Below are positions 34,815 through 44,642 of a stretch of DNA of 64,000 nucleotides, piece after piece. Made by a program: the position numbers and the translations under genes. Position 1 is the first letter of the stretch; every line of letters begins with the position of its first letter. The notes under the pieces were generated by a model that saw only the letters and a list, made by a program, of their open reading frames with translations, searched no databases and had not been told where the DNA came from. The DNA is from a virus. The DNA lies in IMG/VR virus record IMGVR_UViG_3300015263_000627. One strand, 5' to 3'.

Positions 34815-34889
34815 GCCACCGAAACATTGGTAGTGATGTACCGGTTTCGTAAACTGGAAAACCAAGTCCGACTCTTGGCGGTGGCTCCA
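34815..34889 (+). tRNA. tRNA-Thr(CGT)
   Basis: ccggt-ttCGTaa-actgg; gccaccg/cggtggc; CCA. Confidence 0.85.
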
Positions 34890-34890
34890 T

Positions 34891-34965
34891 GCCTCTTAAG
34901 CATATGTGGTGATGCAGCCGCCTTGTAAGCGGCAGAATCAGATTCGATTTCTGAAAGAGGCTCCA
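34891..34965 (+). tRNA. tRNA-Thr(TGT)
   Basis: gccgc-ctTGTaa-gcggc; CCA. Confidence 0.9.
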
Positions 34966-34971
34966 ATTCAT

Positions 34972-35046
34972 GCTCCCTTCTTCTATCAGCTAGGAACCCC
35001 GGCTTTCAACCGGGAAAAACCGGGGCAGCACCGGTAGGGAGTGCCA
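34972..35046 (+). tRNA. tRNA-Glu(TTC)
   Basis: cccgg-ctTTCaa-ccggg; T loop GGCAGCA; CCA. Confidence 0.85.
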
Positions 35047-35051
35047 ATAAC

Positions 35052-35125
35052 GTCGCAATAGGCTAGTGGCAGACCATATCCTTGGTACGGATAGAACCAT
35101 GGTTCGATTCCATGTTGCGGCACCA
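35052..35125 (+). tRNA. tRNA-Thr(GGT)
   Basis: tatcc-ttGGTac-ggata; CCA. Confidence 0.88.
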
Positions 35126-35217
35126 ATTCAAGAAAATATAAACATTGGTTGCAGCCAATGTTTCTTATCAGTTGCCTTTTACCTTGACCTAACTCTGCAA
35201 AGTTTTTGAGGTAAACT

Positions 35218-35291
35218 GTTTCATATCGTCTAACGGAGAGGACACCGCCCTTTTGCGGCGGGAATATGGGTTCGAGTCCCATTGTGATCTG
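35218..35291 (+). pseudogene. Degenerate tRNA (Glu-like body, TTT anticodon)
   Basis: ccgcc-ctTTTgc-ggcgg; mismatched acceptor stem; no CCA. Confidence 0.6.
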
Positions 35292-35418
35292 CAATTGATC
35301 GGTTTCAAATTAGGAGTTCCTGTAGCTATTACGTGGAACGAAATGCGGGCAGTTATAGCTTCCCCGGCTCCTAAAATGCGCTGGACCCGACGCGGTAAAA
35401 TATCGGGAACAAATTTAT

Positions 35419-35501
35419 GGGCAACTGGCATATGGAAACTGGTACACCTAACGGTTTTAGAAACCGCGCTTTTGAGAGTTCGAGTCTCTCGTTGCCTACC
35501 A
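35419..35501 (+). tRNA. tRNA-Leu(TAG)
   Basis: cggt-ttTAGaa-accg; long variable region; CCA. Confidence 0.85.
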
Positions 35502-35505
35502 ATAC

Positions 35506-35590
35506 GTGGCTGTGGGATAAGTTGAAATAGGAACACACAGCGGGCTTAAAATCCGTTCCTTTGCGAGTTCGAGTCTCGCCAGCCACACCA
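35506..35590 (+). tRNA. tRNA-Leu(TAA)
   Basis: gcggg-ctTAAaa-tccgt; CCA. Confidence 0.85.
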
Positions 35591-35595
35591 ATAAT

Positions 35596-35680
35596 GTCGT
35601 TGTGGGCTAATTCGAAATAGGCACACGTTACTGCCTCAAAAGCAGCGCCTTTGCGGGTTCGAATCCCGCCAACGACACCA
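35596..35680 (+). tRNA. tRNA-Leu(CAA)
   Basis: ctgc-ctCAAaa-gcag; CCA. Confidence 0.85.
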
Positions 35681-35684
35681 ATAA

Positions 35685-35758
35685 GGCTCATTAGTTTAAA
35701 AGTAGAACGTTGCTTTTACACGGCAATTGAAGCGGGGCAGTACCGTTATGAGCTACCA
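35685..35758 (+). tRNA. tRNA-Val(TAC)
   Basis: ttgct-ttTACac-ggcaa; T loop GGCAGTA; CCA. Confidence 0.85.
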
Positions 35759-35767
35759 ATTAAGTGC

Positions 35768-35796
35768 TTGACATGCTCTCAAGAGCATGTTATAGT
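35768..35796 (+). promoter_or_regulatory. Sigma70 promoter for the large ncRNA
   Basis: TTGACA-17-TATAGT; spacer is an inverted repeat (acatgctc/gagcatgt). Confidence 0.7.
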
Positions 35797-35848
35797 GCTT
35801 AGTATGCTCGCAAGAGCATTATAAAACACAAGTAAACTTTATAACTTT

Positions 35849-36722
35849 GGCGGTTTAGCGTCGTCAGGATAGCTTGGAGTGATCCAAGTTAAAGCTGTGT
35901 ATCCTATTAAACAGCGCCCGCAAGGGTCCATCTAAACAAGCCTAGTCGTCCCCGCGAGGGGCTATCAGGGATGATGGTAGTATATATGACGACAAGGTGT
36001 GGTCCGAAAGGATAGGGGTAAGCCTCTGCGAAAGCAAGCCCAACCTAATATCCCGCAAGGATAGCCACACATGCAAACTTGTCTAGTAGGTATCGACAAT
36101 AGGTAGTTACAGTAATCCGATGCTTCGCGGCAAAGGGTGGGTAGCATGATCTTCGGGAGAACGGACCCCGCTATTCGGAGGGGAGACGTATATCCTAGAG
36201 TCAGGTTGAGTAACTCGCAAGGTGAAAAACAGTTGGTGTGTTGTATTTTGTTTCCCAAAAGGAAGCGAAGCAACCGAACCAGCACATCAAAATAGGTTTA
36301 GAAAAAATGATCCATGGCGGATCATCTGCATATGAAGCAGAAAGGATTGGTTCGATTCCAATTTTTTTCACCAGAGAAAACGCAAAGTCTGGTTCGATGT
36401 TGATTGAGAAATGGTCTAAACCAATGGCGGCTTGCCGTAACATTGGCGATGAAGCCCCGCAAGGGTGAAGTTGTTATTTGATCGAATTATCCTAATGGGT
36501 TAGCGCCCATGAATAGCTCGCAAGGCTAAGGGTGAGATGATCGGTGAGTAGATCAACATGACAAGTGAAACGCTACACTTCAAAAAAAGCGACCTTGTTA
36601 CACTACATGCCGAAACGGTATGTGGATGAAAGGGAACCCTTATAGTGCGCTAGTCGCCGCACCCGAGCAGGGTGGGGGATAATCCTAGAAGGTGTAACGC
36701 TAAACCCTGTAGTCTCAAGGGT
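35849..36722 (+). ncRNA. GOLLD-like giant structured RNA
   Basis: ggtttagcgt (35852) pairs with acgctaaacc (36697); many GNRA-capped hairpins; size and tRNA-array context fit GOLLD. Confidence 0.68.
36301..36373 (+). tRNA. tRNA-like element inside the GOLLD-like RNA (anticodon ATG)
   Basis: gaaaaaa/ttttttc acceptor, tctgc-atATGaa-gcaga, attgg-ttcgatt-ccaat, ACCA. Confidence 0.6.
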
Positions 36723-36767
36723 CTAAAATATTCTCCAAGCACATTACAATGTGTTTCGACAATATAA

Positions 36768-36842
36768 GCGTCTTTAATTCATTGGCAGAATGCTTGTTCG
36801 ACACGCAAGATGTAGAAAGTTCGATTCTTTCAAGACGCACCA
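36768..36842 (+). tRNA. tRNA-Val(GAC)
   Basis: cttgt-tcGACac-gcaag; CCA. Confidence 0.85.
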
Positions 36843-36882
36843 TTTCGATAAATATATGTAGTTCCATTGTAGGAGAACATAT

Positions 36883-37047
36883 ATGTTAGAAGGATTAATC
36901 GGATTTGCTATCGGGGCAATTGTTATTGGTGTTATTGCCAATCGCCGCCCTCAATGGTTTGCATCTATTGTAACCATGGCAAATAAAATCGATGATAAAG
37001 TCAACGCTGGTGTTACCAGTATAGTTGAAAAAGTTCAAAACAAATAA
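36883..37047 (+). CDS. 54-aa membrane peptide
   Basis: Late promoter GATAAATA (36847), RBS AGGAG; MLEGLIGFAIGAIVIGVIANRRP. Confidence 0.65.
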   Translation: MLEGLIGFAIGAIVIGVIANRRPQWFASIVTMANKIDDKVNAGVTSIVEKVQNK

Positions 37048-37121
37048 TGTAGTGACCGCAGAAGCGACGAGAGCGCCCGATAAGCGTTTGCAAGAAGGGG
37101 CAGTACCTTCCACTACAACCA
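37048..37121 (+). tRNA. tRNA-Ile(GAT)
   Basis: agcgc-ccGATaa-gcgtt; T loop GGCAGTA; CCA. Confidence 0.75.
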
Positions 37122-37125
37122 ATAT

Positions 37126-37202
37126 GGACCCGTGACCGGAACTGGCTACGGCGCGGACTTTTAATCCGTTTTATGAGAGTTCGAGTCTCTCCGGGTCTGC
37201 CA
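37126..37202 (+). tRNA. tRNA-Lys(TTT)
   Basis: gcgga-ctTTTaa-tccgt; CCA. Confidence 0.9.
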
Positions 37203-37246
37203 ATATAAGGAGAGCATATTATGATAAAAAGAAAGGACAGCATATT

Positions 37247-37525
37247 ATGATAAAAAGAACAAGAATTCTCACTCAGAGATATCAGTTTGATGACTGGCCT
37301 TCAAATAAATCATTCGAAGCAATTGAGTATGATGCATCAGGCCAATTGTTTTGGATTGCATACGACGAAAGTCCTATTCAAGTAATCTTTGAACAGCGAT
37401 CAGCAGAATGTTGTTTTCCAATCGATATTAATATGGCAGAACATATATTCGAAACGTTTGGAAGAAAACTTGATCGATCAAAATTACCAAAAGAAGTTTT
37501 ACATAGTAAAATGTGTATAAGTTAA
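37247..37525 (+). CDS. Hypothetical protein
   Basis: 92-aa ORF with a duplicated translation-start region. Confidence 0.55.
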   Translation: MIKRTRILTQRYQFDDWPSNKSFEAIEYDASGQLFWIAYDESPIQVIFEQRSAECCFPIDINMAEHIFETFGRKLDRSKLPKEVLHSKMCIS

Positions 37526-37526
37526 T

Positions 37527-37601
37527 ACACGCATGGCTTGATGGGGAAGCAATGGACTCTTAATCCATGAAATGCGAGTTCGAATCTCGCTGCGTGTACC
37601 A
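37527..37601 (+). tRNA. tRNA-Lys(CTT)
   Basis: atgga-ctCTTaa-tccat; CCA. Confidence 0.9.
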
Positions 37602-37608
37602 TTTCAAA

Positions 37609-37693
37609 GTTTCGGTGCATTGATGTGCGTATCTTGCAAGATCACATTTGATGAAATCGTGTAAGGGTAGTCGCGTAACCTCACCGAAAGCCA
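37609..37693 (+). ncRNA. Unassigned rod-like RNA ending in CCA
   Basis: tttcggtg/caccgaaa closing stem; inner atgtg/cacat and atctt/aagat. Confidence 0.45.
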
Positions 37694-37698
37694 TTTAT

Positions 37699-37770
37699 AG
37701 GGGAGTAGCTTAAGATAAAAGCGGGACTTCATGAATCCAGTTGGTAGTTCATATCTATCCTCCCCTGCCA
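37699..37770 (+). tRNA. tRNA-Met(CAT), degenerate
   Basis: aggggag/ctcccct; weak anticodon stem with ttCATga; CCA. Confidence 0.6.
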
Positions 37771-37777
37771 ACATTAT

Positions 37778-37851
37778 ATCAGCGAGCGCATGGGCGTGGT
37801 CCGAACTCCAAATCCGGAAACCCGCAGGTTCGACTCCTGCCGCTGGTGCCA
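37778..37851 (+). tRNA. tRNA-Trp(CCA)
   Basis: ctCCAaa loop; gcagg-ttcgact-cctgc; CCA. Confidence 0.85.
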
Positions 37852-37857
37852 TTTCAA

Positions 37858-37932
37858 GGTGCTTTGGTGAATCAGCTATCATTTCTGTCTGTCGAACAGA
37901 TGTAACGGGGGCAGCACCCGTAAGCACCGCCA
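37858..37932 (+). tRNA. tRNA-Asp(GTC)
   Basis: tctgt-ctGTCga-acaga; T loop GGCAGCA; CCA. Confidence 0.85.
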
Positions 37933-37944
37933 ATTCAAATTCAA

Positions 37945-38019
37945 GGCTCATGACGCTGCTGGTGTGGCGATCCGGTTGTCAACCGGCTGAGAGGGGTTCG
38001 AATCCCCTATGAGTCGCCA
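37945..38019 (+). tRNA. tRNA-Asp(GTC), second
   Basis: ccgg-ttGTCaa-ccgg; CCA. Confidence 0.85.
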
Positions 38020-38023
38020 ATAA

Positions 38024-38100
38024 CAGGGTATGGGAAAGTCTAGTAATCCGCTACTTTCGGAAAGTAGAGAGCGTTGGAGCGAAGCCAACTGCCCTGACCA
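38024..38100 (+). tRNA. tRNA-Pro(CGG)
   Basis: ctact-ttCGGaa-agtag; C1-G72; CCA. Confidence 0.85.
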
Positions 38101-38104
38101 ATAC

Positions 38105-38192
38105 GCGCCATGGTGTAAGACACGGGAGAGACTTATAAACTCTTTAGCATCAGATGGGTGTTCTTGACTTGGGGCAGTACCAAGATGGCGCA
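38105..38192 (+). tRNA. tRNA-Ile(TAT)-like with long variable arm
   Basis: gcgccat/atggcgc; agag-a-ctTATaa-a-ctct; long V arm; no encoded CCA. Confidence 0.6.
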
Positions 38193-38254
38193 CATAGACT
38201 CCAAATTATGATAAATAGATGTAATAATCTGTCCTCTAACTTGGAGTATAAATA

Positions 38255-38845
38255 ATGTATTACACCATTTACAAAATAACCAATAAAACCAACAACAAAT
38301 ATTATATAGGCAAACATCAAACCAATAACATTGATGATGGTTATATGGGTTCCGGTAAATTATTACGCCGCGCTATCAATAAACATGGAATAAACAATTT
38401 TGTTAAGGAAATTCTCCATATATTTGATAATGAACAGGATATGAATAATAAGGAAAAAGAACTTGTTGTTATTGGAGAACAATCATACAACTTATGTGAT
38501 GGTGGTAAAGGTGGGTTTGGATATATAAACAAACTTCCAAATCAATCTTGGCGTATTAAAACTGGAAAAATTACTTCGCAAAAATTAAAAAATAAATCGG
38601 GGAATGATCATTGGAAAAATATATCCAGATTATCTCATGAAAAATATTCGAATTTAGGATTTCGTAGTTATTCAAAAAAACAACAAAATAAATGGAAATT
38701 ATTAGGCAGTAAAAACGCACAAACACCAGAAGCTAAAGAAAAAAGAGCAAATACATGGAAAATAAAAATACAGAATGGTTGGAAACCCCACAATTGGAAG
38801 ATGAAGAATGTGAAGTCTGTCGTTATACAGGTCAGAAACCCATAA
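38255..38845 (+). mobile_element. GIY-YIG (SegB-like) homing endonuclease in the tRNA array
   Basis: YTIYKITNK...YYIGKH...GYMGSG...YNL; late promoter ATAAATA at 38211. Confidence 0.88.
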
Positions 38846-38920
38846 AACTGAAAAGACAATGGGTCCATTACTTTCCCTTAAAGGGAAGGATTGTGGTATG
38901 TAGATCAAAAAGGTATAATC

Positions 38921-39286
38921 ATGAAAGCAATCTTTAGGTATGATGAATTTTCACACCCACCGCGAATGATGATCAACATTCATGGTGCGCCTCATGAAAG
39001 GCAGCATCGTGAAGTTCTTCAAAAGTATCGCGATGATTTGACTGATGCTTTCAAAAGACAGTTGCCGAATGTTACAATTCCTATTGACCATCCGGTTGAC
39101 TTGGAAGTGTTTTTCACTAATCCGGCAAGTCCTGATTTGAACCATGTATTGACGGCATTGTTCGCCGCAATGGATGCAAAGTCATTGAAGGGTCCGTCTA
39201 TTTTGACTGATGATCGCCATATTCAAAAGGTGGTTATGTCGAAATATTATATCGGTAAGCCAACAAAAAGGGATAGTGTCCGATGA
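38921..39286 (+). CDS. RusA-like resolvase-fold protein (diverged)
   Basis: PVDLEVFF...PDLNHVLTALFAAMD...ILTDDRHI. Confidence 0.5.
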   Translation: MKAIFRYDEFSHPPRMMINIHGAPHERQHREVLQKYRDDLTDAFKRQLPNVTIPIDHPVDLEVFFTNPASPDLNHVLTALFAAMDAKSLKGPSILTDDRHIQKVVMSKYYIGKPTKRDSVR

Positions 39287-39549
39287 CGATTTGCCGAGTA
39301 TGTACGGGTAGCGGTTCATTTTTTGCCGTTCAACCTCATAATATGACGAAGAAAAAGGTTTACAAGTGGTTTCCCTGTCCGTCCTGTAATGGACTTGGAA
39401 CCATTGATGTGGATAGTCCTGCCAAGATTGTAATGCATCCTTTTCCCAAGGGCATTTCTAATAGGCTAAAAAGAAATCTACAAAAATTAAGGGAAGGTAG
39501 CGGGGAAGGTCCCCAAGCGGTCTTGAAAACCGCGCCACCGCAAGGTTGA
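39283..39549 (+). CDS. DnaJ-type Zn-finger small protein
   Basis: CRVCTGSG and CPSCNGLG; 3' end overlaps tRNA-Ser. Confidence 0.45.
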   Translation: MTICRVCTGSGSFFAVQPHNMTKKKVYKWFPCPSCNGLGTIDVDSPAKIVMHPFPKGISNRLKRNLQKLREGSGEGPQAVLKTAPPQG

Positions 39550-39575
39550 TAGTTCAATTCTATTGCCTTCCGCCA
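39492..39575 (+). tRNA. tRNA-Ser(TGA)
   Basis: gcggt-ctTGAaa-accgc; V arm; G73; CCA. Confidence 0.88.
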
Positions 39576-39579
39576 ATAT

Positions 39580-39666
39580 GGAAAATTAAATAGCCGGGGA
39601 GCTATCCACGCTTGGAAAGCGTGAGGCACTTAAATGTGTGTGGATCAAGACCACAGTTTTCCGCCA
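39580..39666 (+). tRNA. tRNA-Ser(GGA)
   Basis: cacgc-ttGGAaa-gcgtg; T loop ATCAAGA; CCA. Confidence 0.85.
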
Positions 39667-39750
39667 ATAACATATCACGCATACCCCAGTCGGGTCGTGT
39701 CCGTCAAGGTATTCGCTCACAACGTCAAGGCGGTGATATGTTTCATTTAT

Positions 39751-39838
39751 GGAAAGATAACCCATAAGGATATGGGGTGCGCCTCGAAAGCGTAACGATG
39801 ATTCAGTCATTGGGGATCAAGACCTCATCTTTCCGCCA
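39751..39838 (+). tRNA. tRNA-Ser(CGA)
   Basis: gcgc-ctCGAaa-gcgt; T loop ATCAAGA; CCA. Confidence 0.85.
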
Positions 39839-40075
39839 TTAGTCTATTGGGATTTCGCGCAAAAAAACCTGATAGGTGCGACACCTGCCTTGCGAGTGGT
39901 GTGACTTTGGGGAGAGTCCTGAGCCAATAGGTCCAGTTCGATATAGAACATACACAATATGTTTCTAATTCTATGTTCTGGCGAAAGTGTTTTGCAAACA
40001 GCCTAAATAAAATATCAGCACAAACACGGATGTAATGGAGTGCTAGTCGAGAGTTAGTAGCTTGACAAAGTTTAT

Positions 40076-40152
40076 AGCAGGTAGGACAAGGTAGATAAGT
40101 CGCCACTCTCATAAAGTGGAGAAAGTCGGGGCAGAGCCGACACCTGCAACCA
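40076..40152 (+). tRNA. tRNA with CAT anticodon (Met or Ile2)
   Basis: ccact-ctCATaa-agtgg; 1:72 mismatch; T loop GGCAGAG; CCA. Confidence 0.8.
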
Positions 40153-40239
40153 ATAATCTGGTACTGATCATACGTCACCTAAAGACATAGGACCGATCAG
40201 CTAAGAGAAAGTATGCGATACTGCCGGATTTTTAATAAT

Positions 40240-40328
40240 GAGTAGGTATCAAGCTCGACGGCAAGGAGCAAGCGGTCTGTAAAACCGATCCCATATGGGC
40301 GGGGGTTCGACTCCTCACCTACTCACCA
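40240..40328 (+). tRNA. tRNA-Tyr(GTA)
   Basis: cggt-ctGTAaa-accg; V arm; 8-bp acceptor / 4-bp T stem fits best; CCA. Confidence 0.82.
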
Positions 40329-40332
40329 TTAC

Positions 40333-40406
40333 GCGGGCGAAGGATTACGGCAGTCTTAGGCGTTGCCAACGCTTCGGCGTGGGTTCGACTCCCACCGTCC
40401 GCACCA
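40333..40406 (+). tRNA. tRNA-Gly(GCC)
   Basis: aggcg-ttGCCaa-cgctt; CCA. Confidence 0.88.
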
Positions 40407-40411
40407 ATAAA

Positions 40412-40487
40412 GCCTTTTGAGCAAGTATGGTTATTGCACCTGTCTGAAGAACAGTGGAACTCCGTTCGATTCGGGGAAAAGGCACCA
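40412..40487 (+). tRNA. tRNA-Phe(GAA)
   Basis: ctgt-ctGAAga-acag; CCA. Confidence 0.88.
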
Positions 40488-40562
40488 TTAGATAGGATAC
40501 CGGTATCCTCCATGTAGATATGGTGGCAGTTAAGGCTGTCGAGTAAAGCCGGGGCTATAATT

Positions 40563-40640
40563 GGGGTGCGGGATTGCATAGGGTGATCGCCTGCCTTGCA
40601 AGCAGGAATCAGCGGGGGGCAGTACCCCGGCACTCCACCA
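40563..40640 (+). tRNA. tRNA-Ala(TGC)
   Basis: cctgc-ctTGCaa-gcagg; G3:U70; CCA. Confidence 0.9.
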
Positions 40641-40647
40641 ATTTTAT

Positions 40648-40722
40648 TCTATCGTACTCAACTGGTAAGAGAAGTGGCTGTTAACCACCGATATGTAGGT
40701 TCGAATCCTACCGATAGAGCCA
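40648..40722 (+). tRNA. tRNA-Asn(GTT)
   Basis: gtgg-ctGTTaa-ccac; CCA. Confidence 0.9.
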
Positions 40723-40726
40723 ATAT

Positions 40727-40801
40727 GCTGCTTTCGTCTAACGATCAGGACACCGCCCTCTCAAGGCGGAAACGTGGGGTGAGTACCCGCAAGCAGCGCC
40801 A
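40727..40801 (+). tRNA. tRNA-Glu(CTC)
   Basis: ccgcc-ctCTCaa-ggcgg; T loop GTGAGTA; CCA. Confidence 0.87.
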
Positions 40802-40804
40802 ATT

Positions 40805-41132
40805 TCGGAAGCGTAGATGATCGCGCTACGGTGAGGAAAGTCGGGTCTGCTAATACAACCGTAATGGGTAACGCCCATCCACAGTAATGTGAGGATTAGA
40901 GCTACAGGGACGATCCTATTAAGTTAGGGATGAAACGAGCAATCTCTACGGGCAGCAATCTCAAGTTCTCCGAAGGGTATGTATTCCCATCACTTAAATG
41001 TGTGTTAGGTAATGGTAGAGAGCAAAGACCTAAATGGAAACGTTTGGGCAAGTCAAATGATCGTCATATATTGATTATAATACGACCATTTCTATAATCA
41101 ATATGAACAGAAACCCGCTTATTCGCTTCCGA
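40805..41132 (+). ncRNA. rnpB: RNase P RNA (bacterial type, compact)
   Basis: P1 tcggaagcg/cgcttccga; CR-I GAGGAAAGTCGGG; gggtaacgccc (P8); TGAAACG; CR-V AACAGAAACCCGCTTAT. Confidence 0.88.
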
Positions 41133-41225
41133 GAAATACTTACCGGGATAAATACCATGTATATCCCGGCATGGCTCGTCCGGGATTTTTTATTTTAGAG
41201 CCATAATAATAAAGAGGTAAAATAC

Positions 41226-41528
41226 ATGGTTCTTCCTATTGTAGTAGCTGCTGTTGTTGCTGGTTCGCTAGTAACAAGTGGAATTGTTGTTCATGAAAGG
41301 AATCCTGTTGTTGGAAATGTTCTAATTGGAGCCGGGGTTGGAACTATTATCGGCGGTGGTCTTGGAACTGCTGCTGGTGCTGGTTTCAGTGTCGCTACTG
41401 GAGCAACAACCGGAGGAGTTATTGGAGGTATTGGCGGCGTTGTCGTTGGTCCTCATGTTTCTTATGCAAAGACAAGATATGTGGTATCACATTATCCTGA
41501 TCCGGCGAAAAATATAAGTGGTTACTAA
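41226..41528 (+). CDS. Glycine-zipper membrane protein
   Basis: Repeated GxxxG motifs; late promoter at 41147; RBS GAGGT. Confidence 0.65.
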   Translation: MVLPIVVAAVVAGSLVTSGIVVHERNPVVGNVLIGAGVGTIIGGGLGTAAGAGFSVATGATTGGVIGGIGGVVVGPHVSYAKTRYVVSHYPDPAKNISGY

Positions 41529-41588
41529 TTTTATCACGTAAAAATTTACTAATACCGGTTGGGGGGACCACAATCCCCCCAATCATTT

Positions 41589-41664
41589 GGTTCCATAGTT
41601 TAACTGGATAAATCACAACCCTGCGAAGGTTGAGTTCCGTGTTCGAGTCACGGTGGAACCTCCA
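41589..41664 (+). tRNA. tRNA-Arg(GCG)
   Basis: caacc-ctGCGaa-ggttg; A20; CCA. Confidence 0.88.
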
Positions 41665-41668
41665 TTTC

Positions 41669-41750
41669 GCGCATATATCCCCTCACGCTTCGAACGTGAA
41701 CAAAGGTAACTGGAAGGAAGATACGGGTTCGAATCCTGTTATGCGCTCCA
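41669..41750 (+). tRNA. Rearranged tRNA-Arg(TCG)-like RNA
   Basis: Acceptor gcgcata/tatgcgc, cacg-ctTCGaa-cgtg, canonical T arm, CCA; D-loop motif AACTGG lies 3' of the anticodon arm. Confidence 0.7.
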
Positions 41751-42098
41751 TTTAAATCTGCCAGCATGGAATTTGCGATGGCAATTTGCACAAAAAACAA
41801 TACACTTAGAAACTTCGTCTAATATACGTTCTTTAGTGCTACCATTAGCTAATAATCTTGATATGGTATTATCTTTTATTTTTGGGTTCATATGATGAAA
41901 ATCTAAACAAGAAAAATCATCTTCACCACAACGAACACAATTATATTGAGGCATAATTTCTTCTCGAAACCATTTCTTTTTAGCTTGTTTGTTTGTGAAG
42001 GAACGTTTATAAACTTTTTTTTTATTTCGTATGTAAGATTCATGAGCAGCTTGTTTCTGTTTTATAGGGTCTTTATAAGGCATAGTATCTCCTATCAA
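41739..42098 (-). mobile_element. HNH endonuclease in the tRNA array
   Basis: CVRCGE...LDFHH...KCIVFCANCHRKFH; late promoter on - strand at ~42110. Confidence 0.85.
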
Positions 42099-42154
42099 AT
42101 GATACTATCTATTTAGGGTTCAAATTTTCAAAATTTTTTGAACCATCAATTCAA

Positions 42155-42230
42155 CTGGGTGAATATCGTGCTAGAAGATTACTTGCCTTGGAAGCAAGTG
42201 GACGAGGGGCAGAGCCTCGCACCCAGACCA
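42155..42230 (+). tRNA. tRNA-Pro(TGG)
   Basis: cttgc-ctTGGaa-gcaag; T loop GGCAGAG; CCA. Confidence 0.85.
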
Positions 42231-42317
42231 ATTCGTGTTATTAAATATGCCCGCTAGTTAGCGGCTCGTATCAGTCCATGGCTCTGATCGAAACGAGAAA
42301 ACAACAATAACACGAAT
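42231..42317 (+). ncRNA. Unassigned three-way-junction RNA
   Basis: attcgtgtta/taacacgaat closes ccgct/agcgg and ctcgt-atcag/ctgat-acgag. Confidence 0.5.
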
Positions 42318-42324
42318 GCTATAA

Positions 42325-42399
42325 TGCCGTTTAGTTCAATGATAGAACGTCACGCTCTGAACGTGAATGTCGGTGGTTTGATTCCATCAACGGCAGCCA
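42325..42399 (+). tRNA. tRNA-Gln(CTG)
   Basis: tcacg-ctCTGaa-cgtga; U1-A72; CCA. Confidence 0.88.
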
Positions 42400-42400
42400 A

Positions 42401-42535
42401 TTAGGCGTTGAGAATAGCTTTTCCGCCTAGATATGCCAATGCTCCAATACCAACAATCGGCAATGTAGCAATATATACTAAGCCGATGAATGGAGCCGCA
42501 AAGAATAAAGCAATATTTTTAATTTTGGTACGCAT
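42401..42535 (-). CDS. 44-aa membrane peptide
   Basis: RBS AAGGAAG; MRTKIKNIALFFAAPFIGLVYIATLPIVGIGALAYLGG. Confidence 0.55.
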   Translation of the reverse strand: MRTKIKNIALFFAAPFIGLVYIATLPIVGIGALAYLGGKAILNA

Positions 42536-42606
42536 AATTTTCTTCCTTTCTACTGGACTCGTTGCATAATTTGTGCCAACGAATGTCCTCCAAAATATAG
42601 AAGGAA

Positions 42607-42635
42607 TTGACTTACCAAACAACATATGGTATAAT
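42607..42635 (+). promoter_or_regulatory. Sigma70 promoter inside the tRNA array
   Basis: TTGACT-17-TATAAT. Confidence 0.72.
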
Positions 42636-42675
42636 AGCGTATAACAAAATTATTCGAAGTATGAAAAAGATATAT

Positions 42676-42750
42676 GAACTAGTGCCGGAATTGGCTACGG
42701 GGCGGTCTGCAAAATCGTTTATAGGGGTTCGAACCCCCTCTAGTTCTCCA
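42676..42750 (+). tRNA. tRNA-Cys(GCA)
   Basis: gcggt-ctGCAaa-atcgt; U73; CCA. Confidence 0.9.
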
Positions 42751-42755
42751 ATAGT

Positions 42756-42837
42756 ACCCATGTAACCGAGTCTGCCTTCTAAGCAGTTAATCGTAGTGGA
42801 GTTGAAAACGGGGGTTCAAATCCCTCCATGGGTTCCA
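42756..42837 (+). tRNA. Rearranged tRNA-Arg(TCT)-like RNA
   Basis: acccatg/catgggt, ctgc-ctTCTaa-gcag, TAGTGGA D-loop motif 3' of the anticodon arm, T arm, CCA. Confidence 0.7.
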
Positions 42838-42909
42838 GTTAGAGGTTTTTTATGTATCAAAATATCAATGAATATATGCAATATGGTTTTTATTCTGGAA
42901 GAACTATTT

Positions 42910-42985
42910 ACTCGCGTAGTTCAGTGGAAAGAACGACAATTTCCTAAATTGTTGGTCCCCGGTTCGATCCCGGGCGCGAGTTCCA
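42910..42985 (+). tRNA. tRNA-Arg(CCT)
   Basis: acaat-ttCCTaa-attgt; CCA. Confidence 0.9.
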
Positions 42986-42989
42986 ATTC

Positions 42990-43074
42990 GCCTTAGTATC
43001 GGACCTGTTGTTCTAAACAGGCAAATAATAAACCGTAATGGACTATAGGGGTTCGATTCCCCTCTAAGGCTCCA
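42990..43074 (+). tRNA. Third rearranged tRNA-like RNA (TCT in an 8-nt loop)
   Basis: gccttag/ctaaggc, cctgt-tgtTCTaa-acagg, TAATGG motif 3', agggg-ttcgatt-cccct, CCA. Confidence 0.6.
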
Positions 43075-43089
43075 TTAGAAAGGTAAATC

Positions 43090-43704
43090 ATGGTTACGCT
43101 AATTGGTGACGTTCACGGCAAATATGGTGAATATAAACAAATTATAAAAAGGCATAAAAATTCTATTGCCTTGGGAGATATGGGACTTGGATTTTTCCGT
43201 TTTGATCATCATGAAGGGAAAATTCCAATGGCTAATCCTCCGTATGATTACATGGTGAAATATAATGCTCGATTTATTCGAGGCAACCATGATAATCCGG
43301 AAGTTTGTAAAAAACATACCCAATGGATACCGGATGGAACTATCGAAGGTGATATGTTCTTTCTTGGCGGGGCATTTTCAATAGATCATATGTATCGTCT
43401 TGAAGGGTATAGCTGGTGGAAAGATGAAGAATTGTCACATGAAGAATTTGACAAGATCATCGATCCCTACCGGAAAGCTAAACCAAGAATTGTGATAACT
43501 CATGATTGTCCTTTGCGGATGGTTCCTTATGTTGGTTCACACCATATTAGGGACAATTCGAGAACTCAACAATTCCTGCAATCATTGTTCGAGTTTCATC
43601 AACCCGAATATTGGTATTTTGGTCATCACCATAAGTCATGGAAGATGATTTCAGATAAAACAACATTCCGATGTTTAGCTGAACTTGAGACATTGGAAAT
43701 CTAA
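43090..43704 (+). CDS. Calcineurin-like metallophosphoesterase
   Basis: GDVHG, LGD.G, RGNHD, ITHDCP, FGHHH. Confidence 0.88.
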   Translation: MVTLIGDVHGKYGEYKQIIKRHKNSIALGDMGLGFFRFDHHEGKIPMANPPYDYMVKYNARFIRGNHDNPEVCKKHTQWIPDGTIEGDMFFLGGAFSIDHMYRLEGYSWWKDEELSHEEFDKIIDPYRKAKPRIVITHDCPLRMVPYVGSHHIRDNSRTQQFLQSLFEFHQPEYWYFGHHHKSWKMISDKTTFRCLAELETLEI

Positions 43705-43850
43705 CCGTTGTCGGGGCAACGTAAATAATCCCCCCTCAATTGAGGTTCTACCCGAATACGAAGTGCATAGCCACCGTCGCACCAACCAAGGATATCGGGA
43801 GACATTCGGTTCAAAGGCGTGAGAACCAGCAATTAGAAATAGAGATAAAA

Positions 43851-43936
43851 GGAATGAACAAGCCGAGAGGATCGGCAACTGTTTGCTAAACAGATTGTTC
43901 CGAGAGGAATACGGTTCGAATCCGTGTCATTCCGCC
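43851..43936 (+). tRNA. tRNA-Ser(GCT)
   Basis: ctgt-ttGCTaa-acag; V arm; CCA. Confidence 0.87.
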
Positions 43937-43942
43937 AATAAT

Positions 43943-44017
43943 GCGCGCGTGGGTCATTGGTTGATCGTCAGCCTTCCAAGCTGTTCCAAGCGGGTTCGAT
44001 TCCCGCCGCCCGCTCCA
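43943..44017 (+). tRNA. tRNA-Gly(TCC)
   Basis: cagc-ctTCCaa-gctg; U73; CCA. Confidence 0.88.
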
Positions 44018-44038
44018 ATTCAGATAATGGGGATAACA

Positions 44039-44411
44039 ATGTTCAAATGGATAAAGTCGTTCTTTGAACCAAAGAAAAAGGTGCCACATAATGGCATGAG
44101 AGCCTATGATAAAGGATTTGATATAAATGATAATCCTTTCTGGAAAAACACGGTTCAATATGTAATTTGGCGCAAGGATTACATTTTTGCGTCACAATAT
44201 CCAAAGGTGAAGAAAGATGTTAACATACAGTCAACTAAACCAAGAGTGTGAACGATGGCGAAATCGCTATCTATCATCCGATGCTGGTAGTATAGTTGAA
44301 GTAAGCAAGGAACAAATTCGATTGATCTATCTTTCGCTTGCTGCTGCTAAGGCGCGGCATTACAATGATAAGGTTGATCCGGAATTTGTAGAGTTAGATA
44401 AGAGTTTATAG
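44039..44411 (+). CDS. Two small ORFs (44039-44251, 44217-44411)
   Basis: Between tRNA-Gly and tRNA-Gln. Confidence 0.45.
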
Positions 44412-44483
44412 GGGATTCGTTCAATGGTAGGACGGCAGACTTTGAATCTGCCTACGTGGGTTCGATTCCTACATCCCCTTCCA
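44410..44483 (+). tRNA. tRNA-Gln(TTG)
   Basis: gcaga-ctTTGaa-tctgc; CCA. Confidence 0.9.
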
Positions 44484-44487
44484 ATAT

Positions 44488-44561
44488 GGCGGTAGTTCGC
44501 TGGCGAACGGGCATTGCTCATAACGATGCACAGGTGGGATCGTCACCCACAACCGCTACCA
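44488..44561 (+). tRNA. tRNA-Met(CAT)
   Basis: gcattg-ctCATaa-cgatgc; T loop ATCGTCA; CCA. Confidence 0.8.
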
Positions 44562-44565
44562 ATAA

Positions 44566-44642
44566 GCTGGCTATGCTCGATGGCAATGAGCGGCGTGTCT
44601 GTGAAACACGAATATTCGGTTCGAATCCGATAGCCAGTACCA
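44566..44642 (+). tRNA. tRNA-His(GTG)
   Basis: cgtgt-ctGTGaa-acacg; A73, no G-1; CCA. Confidence 0.87.

Follow-up and report, generated by a model that had tools for sequence, protein, structure and literature searches.

A tRNA-shaped module with an encoded CCA in the linker of a phage GOLLD RNA, at a site where related GOLLDs keep the tRNA body and lose the acceptor end

The stretch of viral DNA analyzed here (IMG/VR record IMGVR_UViG_3300015263_000627, 64,000 nt; hereafter, the window) carries a tRNA array between 34.8 and 44.6 kb, in which ARAGORN predicts 24 tRNAs, including one that is nested within a GOLLD RNA (Table 1). The Rfam GOLLD model RF02032 matches positions 36231-36721 over its entire length (model positions 1-416 of 416) with a score of 180.1 bits, above the gathering score of 150. 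Upstream of the modeled part lies the variable 5' domain expected of a GOLLD, for which a total length of ~800-900 nt is typical; blastn detects ~60% similarity to GOLLD loci in IMG/VR from ~35802 to 36628. The location in a phage tRNA array is likewise that of GOLLD RNAs, with homologs in cultured phages as well as in phage contigs from IMG/VR. The putative promoter, with 11 of 12 consensus matches, is located directly upstream of the 5' domain, and no terminator-like site was found on the + strand between GOLLD and the tRNA-Val at 36768. Given the promoter, the similarity upstream of the modeled part, and the lack of a terminator, GOLLD appears to be a single RNA of ~920 nt, transcribed from its own promoter inside the tRNA array.

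The CCA is encoded in 22 of the 23 free-standing tRNAs of the window (ARAGORN, 34815-44642). Most of these tRNAs have AT or TT directly after the CCA, which may represent a shared 3' processing context. As anticipated in the original prediction, an RNase P RNA lies 4.4 kb downstream of the nested element, where it is detected by the Rfam model; it is a candidate for the enzyme that processes the array and perhaps also the nested element. A megablast search of the 10000-34000 portion of the window against the phage collection produced no match and hence no close cultured relative.

Table 1. Coordinates of GOLLD, its nested element, and associated features in the window
Feature	Position	Strand	Evidence
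Nested tRNA-shaped module	36301-36373	+	ARAGORN tRNA-His(atg); Rfam tRNA model; slot shared with relatives
Full GOLLD RNA, ~920 nt	35803-36721	+	Rfam RF02032; blastn; start inferred from promoter
GOLLD 5' domain	~35803-36230	+	blastn similarity, promoter
Hairpin P13 (Rfam model positions 1-61), closes the 5' domain	36231-36291	+	Rfam alignment
GOLLD linker holding the tRNA	36292-36376	+	Rfam alignment
GOLLD 3' domain	36377-36721	+	Rfam RF02032
Putative sigma-70-like promoter, TTGACA / 17 nt / TATAGT with extended TG	35768-35796	+	Consensus match only
Conserved 3' flank of the slot, AAAACGCAAAGUCUGGU (Rfam consensus AAAGCAAAAGUCU)	36377-36393	+	Alignments
RNase P RNA, class A, phage-encoded	40805-41136	+	Rfam RF00010, 139.1 bits
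Free-standing tRNA-His(GUG), G1-U72, A73, CCA	44566-44642	+	ARAGORN

The nested element (GAAAAAAUGAUCCAUGGCGGAUCAUCUGCAUAUGAAGCAGAAAGGAUUGGUUCGAUUCCAAUUUUUUUCACCA, 73 nt) is called by ARAGORN at 36301-36373 on the + strand as a tRNA-His with the anticodon atg. The Rfam tRNA model RF00005 matches 36301-36370 over its full length (model positions 1-71) with 44.8 bits (gathering score, 29; E-value of 2.6e-6 over the whole window). In the Rfam alignment of GOLLD, the element is an insertion in an unpaired linker (RF02032 model positions ~62-130) that separates the first modeled hairpin from the pseudoknotted 3' domain; hairpin P13 ends 9 nt before the tRNA. The acceptor stem consists of 7 bp, G1-C72 and six A-U pairs, followed by A73 and the CCA at 36371-36373. 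In the D arm, GAUC/GAUC encloses the 7-nt loop CAUGGCG; in another possible register, AUCC/GGAU, the loop has 5 nt and there are two bases at position 26. The anticodon stem, UCUGC/GCAGA, carries the 7-nt loop AUAUGAA with U33 and the anticodon AUG at 36332-36334, and the T arm, AUUGG/CCAAU, carries the loop UUCGAUU. The original prediction of a 73-nt cloverleaf with CCA nested in GOLLD, with an acceptor stem composed almost entirely of A-U pairs, a short D loop, and an anticodon for the His codon CAU, is thus confirmed in each of these particulars. The 7-bp acceptor stem, three arms, U33, and UUCRANY-type T loop are those of a canonical elongator tRNA; the two-base 8/9 connector and the 5-nt variable loop of class I tRNAs are both missing. 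The connector between the acceptor and D stems (positions 8/9) is a single base, with position 9 deleted in the Rfam alignment, and the variable loop in the same alignment is AAGG, 4 nt.

Folding predictions suggest that the A-U acceptor stem is thermodynamically weak or marginal: the minimum-energy fold joins the U run to the variable region rather than to the other acceptor strand, and the centroid structure retains four acceptor pairs (z-score = -2.5). The conserved 3' flank contains a hexamer, UCUGGU (36388-36393), that is the complement of ACCAGA (36370-36375; A73-CCA-GA) and is paired with it in the minimum-energy fold. This pairing, which was noticed after the fact, would mask the CCA if it formed. 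At the UCUGGU site, relatives have ACUGAC or UCUGUC, and no CCA. The hexamer CAUAUG at 36329-36334, which extends from the last base of the anticodon stem through the loop to the end of the anticodon, is a palindrome that could support loop-loop pairing between copies; we dropped it as a kissing-loop dimerization site, the loops of relatives having no such palindrome.

A GOLLD hairpin at the same offset from a tRNA was identified by blastn in Sinorhizobium phage Phosso (PV764938) and in Phaeobacter phages MD18 (MT270409) and DSS3_MAL1 (MN602268). Each of the three scores as a GOLLD with the Rfam model (160-187 bits), the tRNA starts 6-9 nt after the hairpin, and in MD18 and DSS3_MAL1, the nested tRNA is annotated as tRNA-Arg. 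A pattern derived from the conserved hairpin retrieved 69 further loci from IMG/VR, so that P13 is retained in these loci as well as in the three cultured phages. All 18 tRNA-bearing loci tested are GOLLDs by the Rfam model (187-216 bits), with scores of 54-64 bits for the nested tRNAs listed. Among the 73 slots, 67 contain a tRNA-sized insert (linker of 83-94 nt), two are cut by contig ends, and four contain other linkers. In the comparison of inserts across homologs that had been proposed along with the original prediction, the nested element proves to be more than a chance occurrence, as 67 of the 73 related loci have an insert of tRNA size in the same slot. ARAGORN called tRNAs in 53 slots, namely, Asn gtt (25), Lys ttt (14), Lys ctt (8), Arg tct (2), and one each of Ile tat, Thr tgt, a four-base anticodon, and His atg, the last being the window copy.

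The four exceptions (L027, L047, L062, and L081) have the same hairpin followed either by a linker of 40-50 nt with a small hairpin or by an A/U-rich linker of ~85 nt, without a tRNA; hence, the slot can be empty. Several of the arrays also encode transfer-messenger RNAs (tmRNAs) downstream of GOLLD, from a few hundred bases to a few kilobases beyond it: alpha-type permuted tmRNAs in the Phaeobacter phages (L014:3195-3610 and L015:3041-3457) and a beta-type tmRNA in L041 (7158-7524). A search of IMG/VR with the 3'-domain motif TAC..GNRA..GTGGAT..GGGAA yielded 12 loci, none of which is a GOLLD by the Rfam model, and these were discarded as chance matches.

Single-sequence folds of the homologous linkers did not recover the cloverleaf and gave weak z-scores, and covariation was used instead. 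In the RNAalifold consensus for the 48 unique nested sequences, the stems of all three arms (D, anticodon, and T) and the inner part of the acceptor stem are recovered, with compensatory changes at 16 of 17 consensus pairs. Acceptor pairs 4-7 are formed in 44-47 of the 48 sequences, and pairs 1-3 in 22-26, which is near chance. The CCA is encoded in none of the 52 nested tRNAs of relatives, whereas 797 of the 835 free-standing tRNAs in the same loci (95%) encode it, which excludes the missing CCA as a general habit of these phages. Within the anticodon loop, U33, U36, A37, and A38 are each retained in at least 90% of the nested tRNAs. The nested loops (loci L016-L084 and L013-L015) nearly all contain U36-A37-A38 and comprise Asn GUU, Lys UUU/CUU, Arg UCU, Thr UGU, and Ile UAU; the anticodons in relatives thus correspond to codons starting with A. 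The wobble base switches between Asn gtt and Lys ttt within near-identical nested bodies, three nested tRNAs have an anticodon loop of 8-9 nt, and in 8 of the 12 loci with at least 20 array tRNAs in view, a free-standing tRNA with the nested anticodon is present as well.

The most extreme loss was observed in L087 (7260-7704), a GOLLD that scores 140 bits (E-value of 9e-39), just under the Rfam gathering score. Its linker contains the D, anticodon (loop AUUGAAC), and T arms without an acceptor stem, and the T stem runs directly into the conserved CAGCAAAGUCU flank. The L087 contig shares with the window the protein of an array ORF, which is 70% identical over matched residues 1-93. Covarying arms, combined with the loss of the CCA and the outer acceptor pairs and with a drifting anticodon, point to selection for a tRNA body and not for a releasable, chargeable tRNA.

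The window copy is the exception in this family. Among the 53 nested tRNAs compared, it is the only one with a CCA, and it also has a perfect 7-bp acceptor stem and A73. Its T loop, UUCGAUU, and its CCA are in the style of the tRNAs in its own array, the nested lineage having UUCAAAU or UUCAACU, and its body cannot be aligned with the other nested tRNAs beyond the universal tRNA positions. The simplest account of these sequence features is that the slot was probably refilled by a CCA-encoding tRNA of the array type. The closest paralog in the array shares ~50 of 73 positions, so that a swap, if any, was not recent. In the absence of a close paralog, the window CCA is unlike a mere relic of a recent swap, which hints that the acceptor end of the window copy is under selection.

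RNA-library sequences are available for this region. These are assembled metatranscriptome contigs of low depth (~5), from which RNA ends cannot be read and in which DNA carry-over is possible. Two contigs, of 673 and 628 nt, from two soil runs of one study represent a ~95% identical relative: both match 36044-36298, continue with 69 other letters, and resume at 36377, extending to 36700 and 36651, respectively. In a close relative, the slot is hence filled by another insert of about the same length, which in the assembled sequence runs on into both GOLLD domains. Three flank-specific patterns for this relative produced no match in IMG/VR and the JGI metagenomes. In a sediment run, a 174-nt contig without differences from the window (36194-36367) bridges the 5' junction of the tRNA, with 107 nt upstream of it and 67 nt inside, and a further exact contig ends at 36293, 8 nt short of the tRNA. 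At the end of one contig is AGATCGGAAGAGC..., which we take to be an Illumina adapter and an indication that fragments ended near 36700. The RNA-library runs gave no cover over the flanking free tRNAs at 35596-35755 and 36768-36842. The contigs lend weak support to the existence of uncut GOLLD forms and do not argue against partial cleavage.

With a full acceptor stem and CCA, some RNase P cleavage of the window copy is possible, and we regard such cleavage as plausible. In the corresponding explanation, which is a serious alternative though less likely than not, RNase P of the phage or the host would cut at 36300/36301, the 3' pathway would trim the RNA to the CCA, and the 73-nt product would be released or left on one half, GOLLD being split into 5' and 3' halves that may still assemble. 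The window copy combines every RNase P substrate feature (a 7-bp acceptor stem on a 5-bp T stem, G+1, A73, and the CCA that is unique to it) and departs from its relatives in the very features on which release would depend; this difference counts against tethering, as do the RNase P RNA of the phage itself and the exact contigs ending at 36293 and 36367. Moreover, with no + strand terminator before tRNA-Val, GOLLD would be part of a transcript that is processed by tRNA enzymes anyway, and according to a recent review, the GOLLD 3' domain alone assembles in vitro (PMC12990946). Cleavage is at odds with the exact contig across the 5' junction, with the 52 slots of relatives that have neither CCA nor regular outer acceptor pairs, with the GOLLD of L087 that has no acceptor stem at all, and with the pairing of UCUGGU that would mask the CCA. 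Because the slots of relatives are without CCA and outer pairs, it cannot be for cleavage that the slot is conserved. A route via RNase Z is unlikely, as this enzyme is inhibited by an encoded CCA.

A working tRNA-His(AUG), released, charged with His, and reading the phage-preferred codon CAU by Watson-Crick pairing, is the least probable of the explanations considered here, and we give it little credence. The cloverleaf is complete and has a CCA, A73 is shared with the tRNA-His(GUG) of the phage itself, and CAU outnumbers CAC by 237 to 57 in window ORFs of at least 150 aa. However, the same bias for T over C is seen for Asn, Tyr, and Asp, with no A34 tRNA for any of them, and the free-standing tRNA-His(GUG) makes a second His decoder redundant. 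Recognition of tRNA-His by HisRS depends on G34 and on G-1:C73 or, in many alphaproteobacteria, on A73 with U72 and no G-1. The nested element has A34 instead of G34, no G-1 (base 36300 is A), and C72, unlike U72 in the free-standing tRNA-His(GUG), so that of these bacterial tRNA-His features, A73 is the only one that fits. To our knowledge, tRNA-Arg(ACG) is essentially the only bacterial tRNA with A34. The aberrant body, with its one-base 8/9 connector and 4-nt variable loop, and the drift of the nested anticodon in relatives, some with loops of 8-9 nt, also speak against decoding. The free-standing tRNA-His(GUG), with G1-U72, A73, and no G-1, is presumably of the type found in many alphaproteobacteria; this gives a hint of an alphaproteobacterial host that agrees with the nearest matches of the hairpin, in Sinorhizobium and Phaeobacter phages. 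An evolutionary relic, that is, a tRNA gene that came to lie in a variable, permissive linker and serves no function itself, seems improbable to us, if slightly less so than the His decoder. Such permissiveness would agree with the four related GOLLDs with non-tRNA linkers, with the unstructured, A/U-rich linker of the Rfam consensus, and with the solved GOLLD structures, in which the J13/15 linker is variable and disordered (PMC12286853). It is difficult to reconcile with the occupancy of 67 of 73 slots, with three arms maintained by compensatory changes across sequences that are only ~60% identical, with the retention of U33, U36, A37, and A38, or with the close relative in the RNA-library contigs, which swapped its insert for one of similar size rather than losing it.

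The explanation that we favor, with a probability of about 50%, is that the tRNA-shaped module mostly stays covalently attached to GOLLD and is displayed inside the cage, and is not an ordinary His decoder. That GOLLD RNAs can hold a tRNA in the linker, and that this tRNA could be tethered cargo, has already been published. Cryo-EM revealed that GOLLD assembles as RNA-only cages, with the linker, which sometimes holds a tRNA, pointing into the interior; the env-38 cage is a 14-mer, and Fig. 4c of that study depicts it "exposing the covalently linked tRNAs" (Kretsch et al. 2025, Nature, PMC12286853). A cage with inward-facing linkers is known for env-38 and the S. agalactiae GOLLD only (PMC12286853, PMC12990946). 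A tRNA-Phe in J13/15 of a Mycolicibacterium GOLLD is mentioned in a 2026 review (Morgado 2020, as quoted in PMC12990946), which proposes "inhibited storage" for the GOLLD tRNA, and the M. aubagnense GOLLD contains a pseudo-tRNA for which a separate transcript was not detected (Behra et al. 2019, PMC6582537). The displayed cargo suggested in the original prediction agrees with the published hypothesis (PMC12286853), and the uncut contigs fit tethering; beyond these points, we infer that the module stays attached, sits inside the cage, and has a binding partner. The addition made here is the family pattern, in which the body is kept while the acceptor end and the CCA are lost.

Under this tethered arrangement, GOLLD would be transcribed from its own promoter inside the phage tRNA array, and the nested element would fill a "tRNA slot" in the J13/15 linker between the two GOLLD domains. 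Each protomer would then display one tRNA body, consisting of the D/T elbow and the anticodon arm, on the inner face of the cage. In most relatives, the crippled acceptor end could protect the module from the RNase P processing of the surrounding array; in the window, the slot may have been refilled with an unusually complete tRNA, for which some cleavage by RNase P would be possible.

We know of no function established for GOLLD since 2009, though the cage structure has been solved. The linker tRNA is the only part of GOLLD that resembles something with a known binding partner. With the body kept by selection and the CCA and outer pairs stripped, the slot would hold a tethered, displayed tRNA mimic and not a hidden tRNA gene, and this provides an experimental handle, namely, what binds the displayed elbow and anticodon arm. 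Within the same framework, it is a long shot that the tRNA body is the functional part of GOLLD and that the cage shows 10-14 tethered tRNA look-alikes, with elbow and anticodon loop intact and their acceptor ends crippled against RNase P, as a sponge or decoy for host factors that act on tRNAs. If so, the targets could be defense nucleases cleaving the anticodon loops of tRNAs (PARIS, retron effectors, and others) or the ribosome, and the near-exclusive U36-A37-A38 loops would reflect which tRNAs are attacked; the CCA-bearing, His-type copy in the window would then be a slot retooled for another target or for regulated release. As the counterexample within the family, the window copy is the best single substrate for determining whether RNase P can open GOLLD.

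The element shares with the published GOLLDs that contain a linker tRNA the RNA family, the setting in a phage tRNA array, and the site between the 5' and 3' domains. The published GOLLD tRNAs are a tRNA-Phe or an unnamed pseudo-tRNA, whereas the window copy has the anticodon AUG with A34, an acceptor stem with all 7 bp, and a CCA. Phosso, MD18, and DSS3_MAL1 have the homologous hairpin and 3' flank, with the tRNA at the same offset as in the window. As in the window, the nested tRNA of MD18 and DSS3_MAL1 is located within a tRNA array; the Phosso stretch showed no array tRNA. The loops in these three phages are of the Arg(UCU) type, position 33 being G instead of U in MD18 and DSS3_MAL1, and unlike the window copy, their nested tRNAs have no CCA and imperfect outer acceptor pairs. 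Among larger RNAs, tRNA-like domains are also found in tmRNA, in the 3' tRNA-like structures of plant viruses, and in the mascRNA of MALAT1, the common feature being an embedded tRNA-shaped domain that is recognized by tRNA enzymes. Those domains are terminal or are cleaved by RNase P, whereas the element in the window is internal, located between the two domains of a cage-forming RNA.
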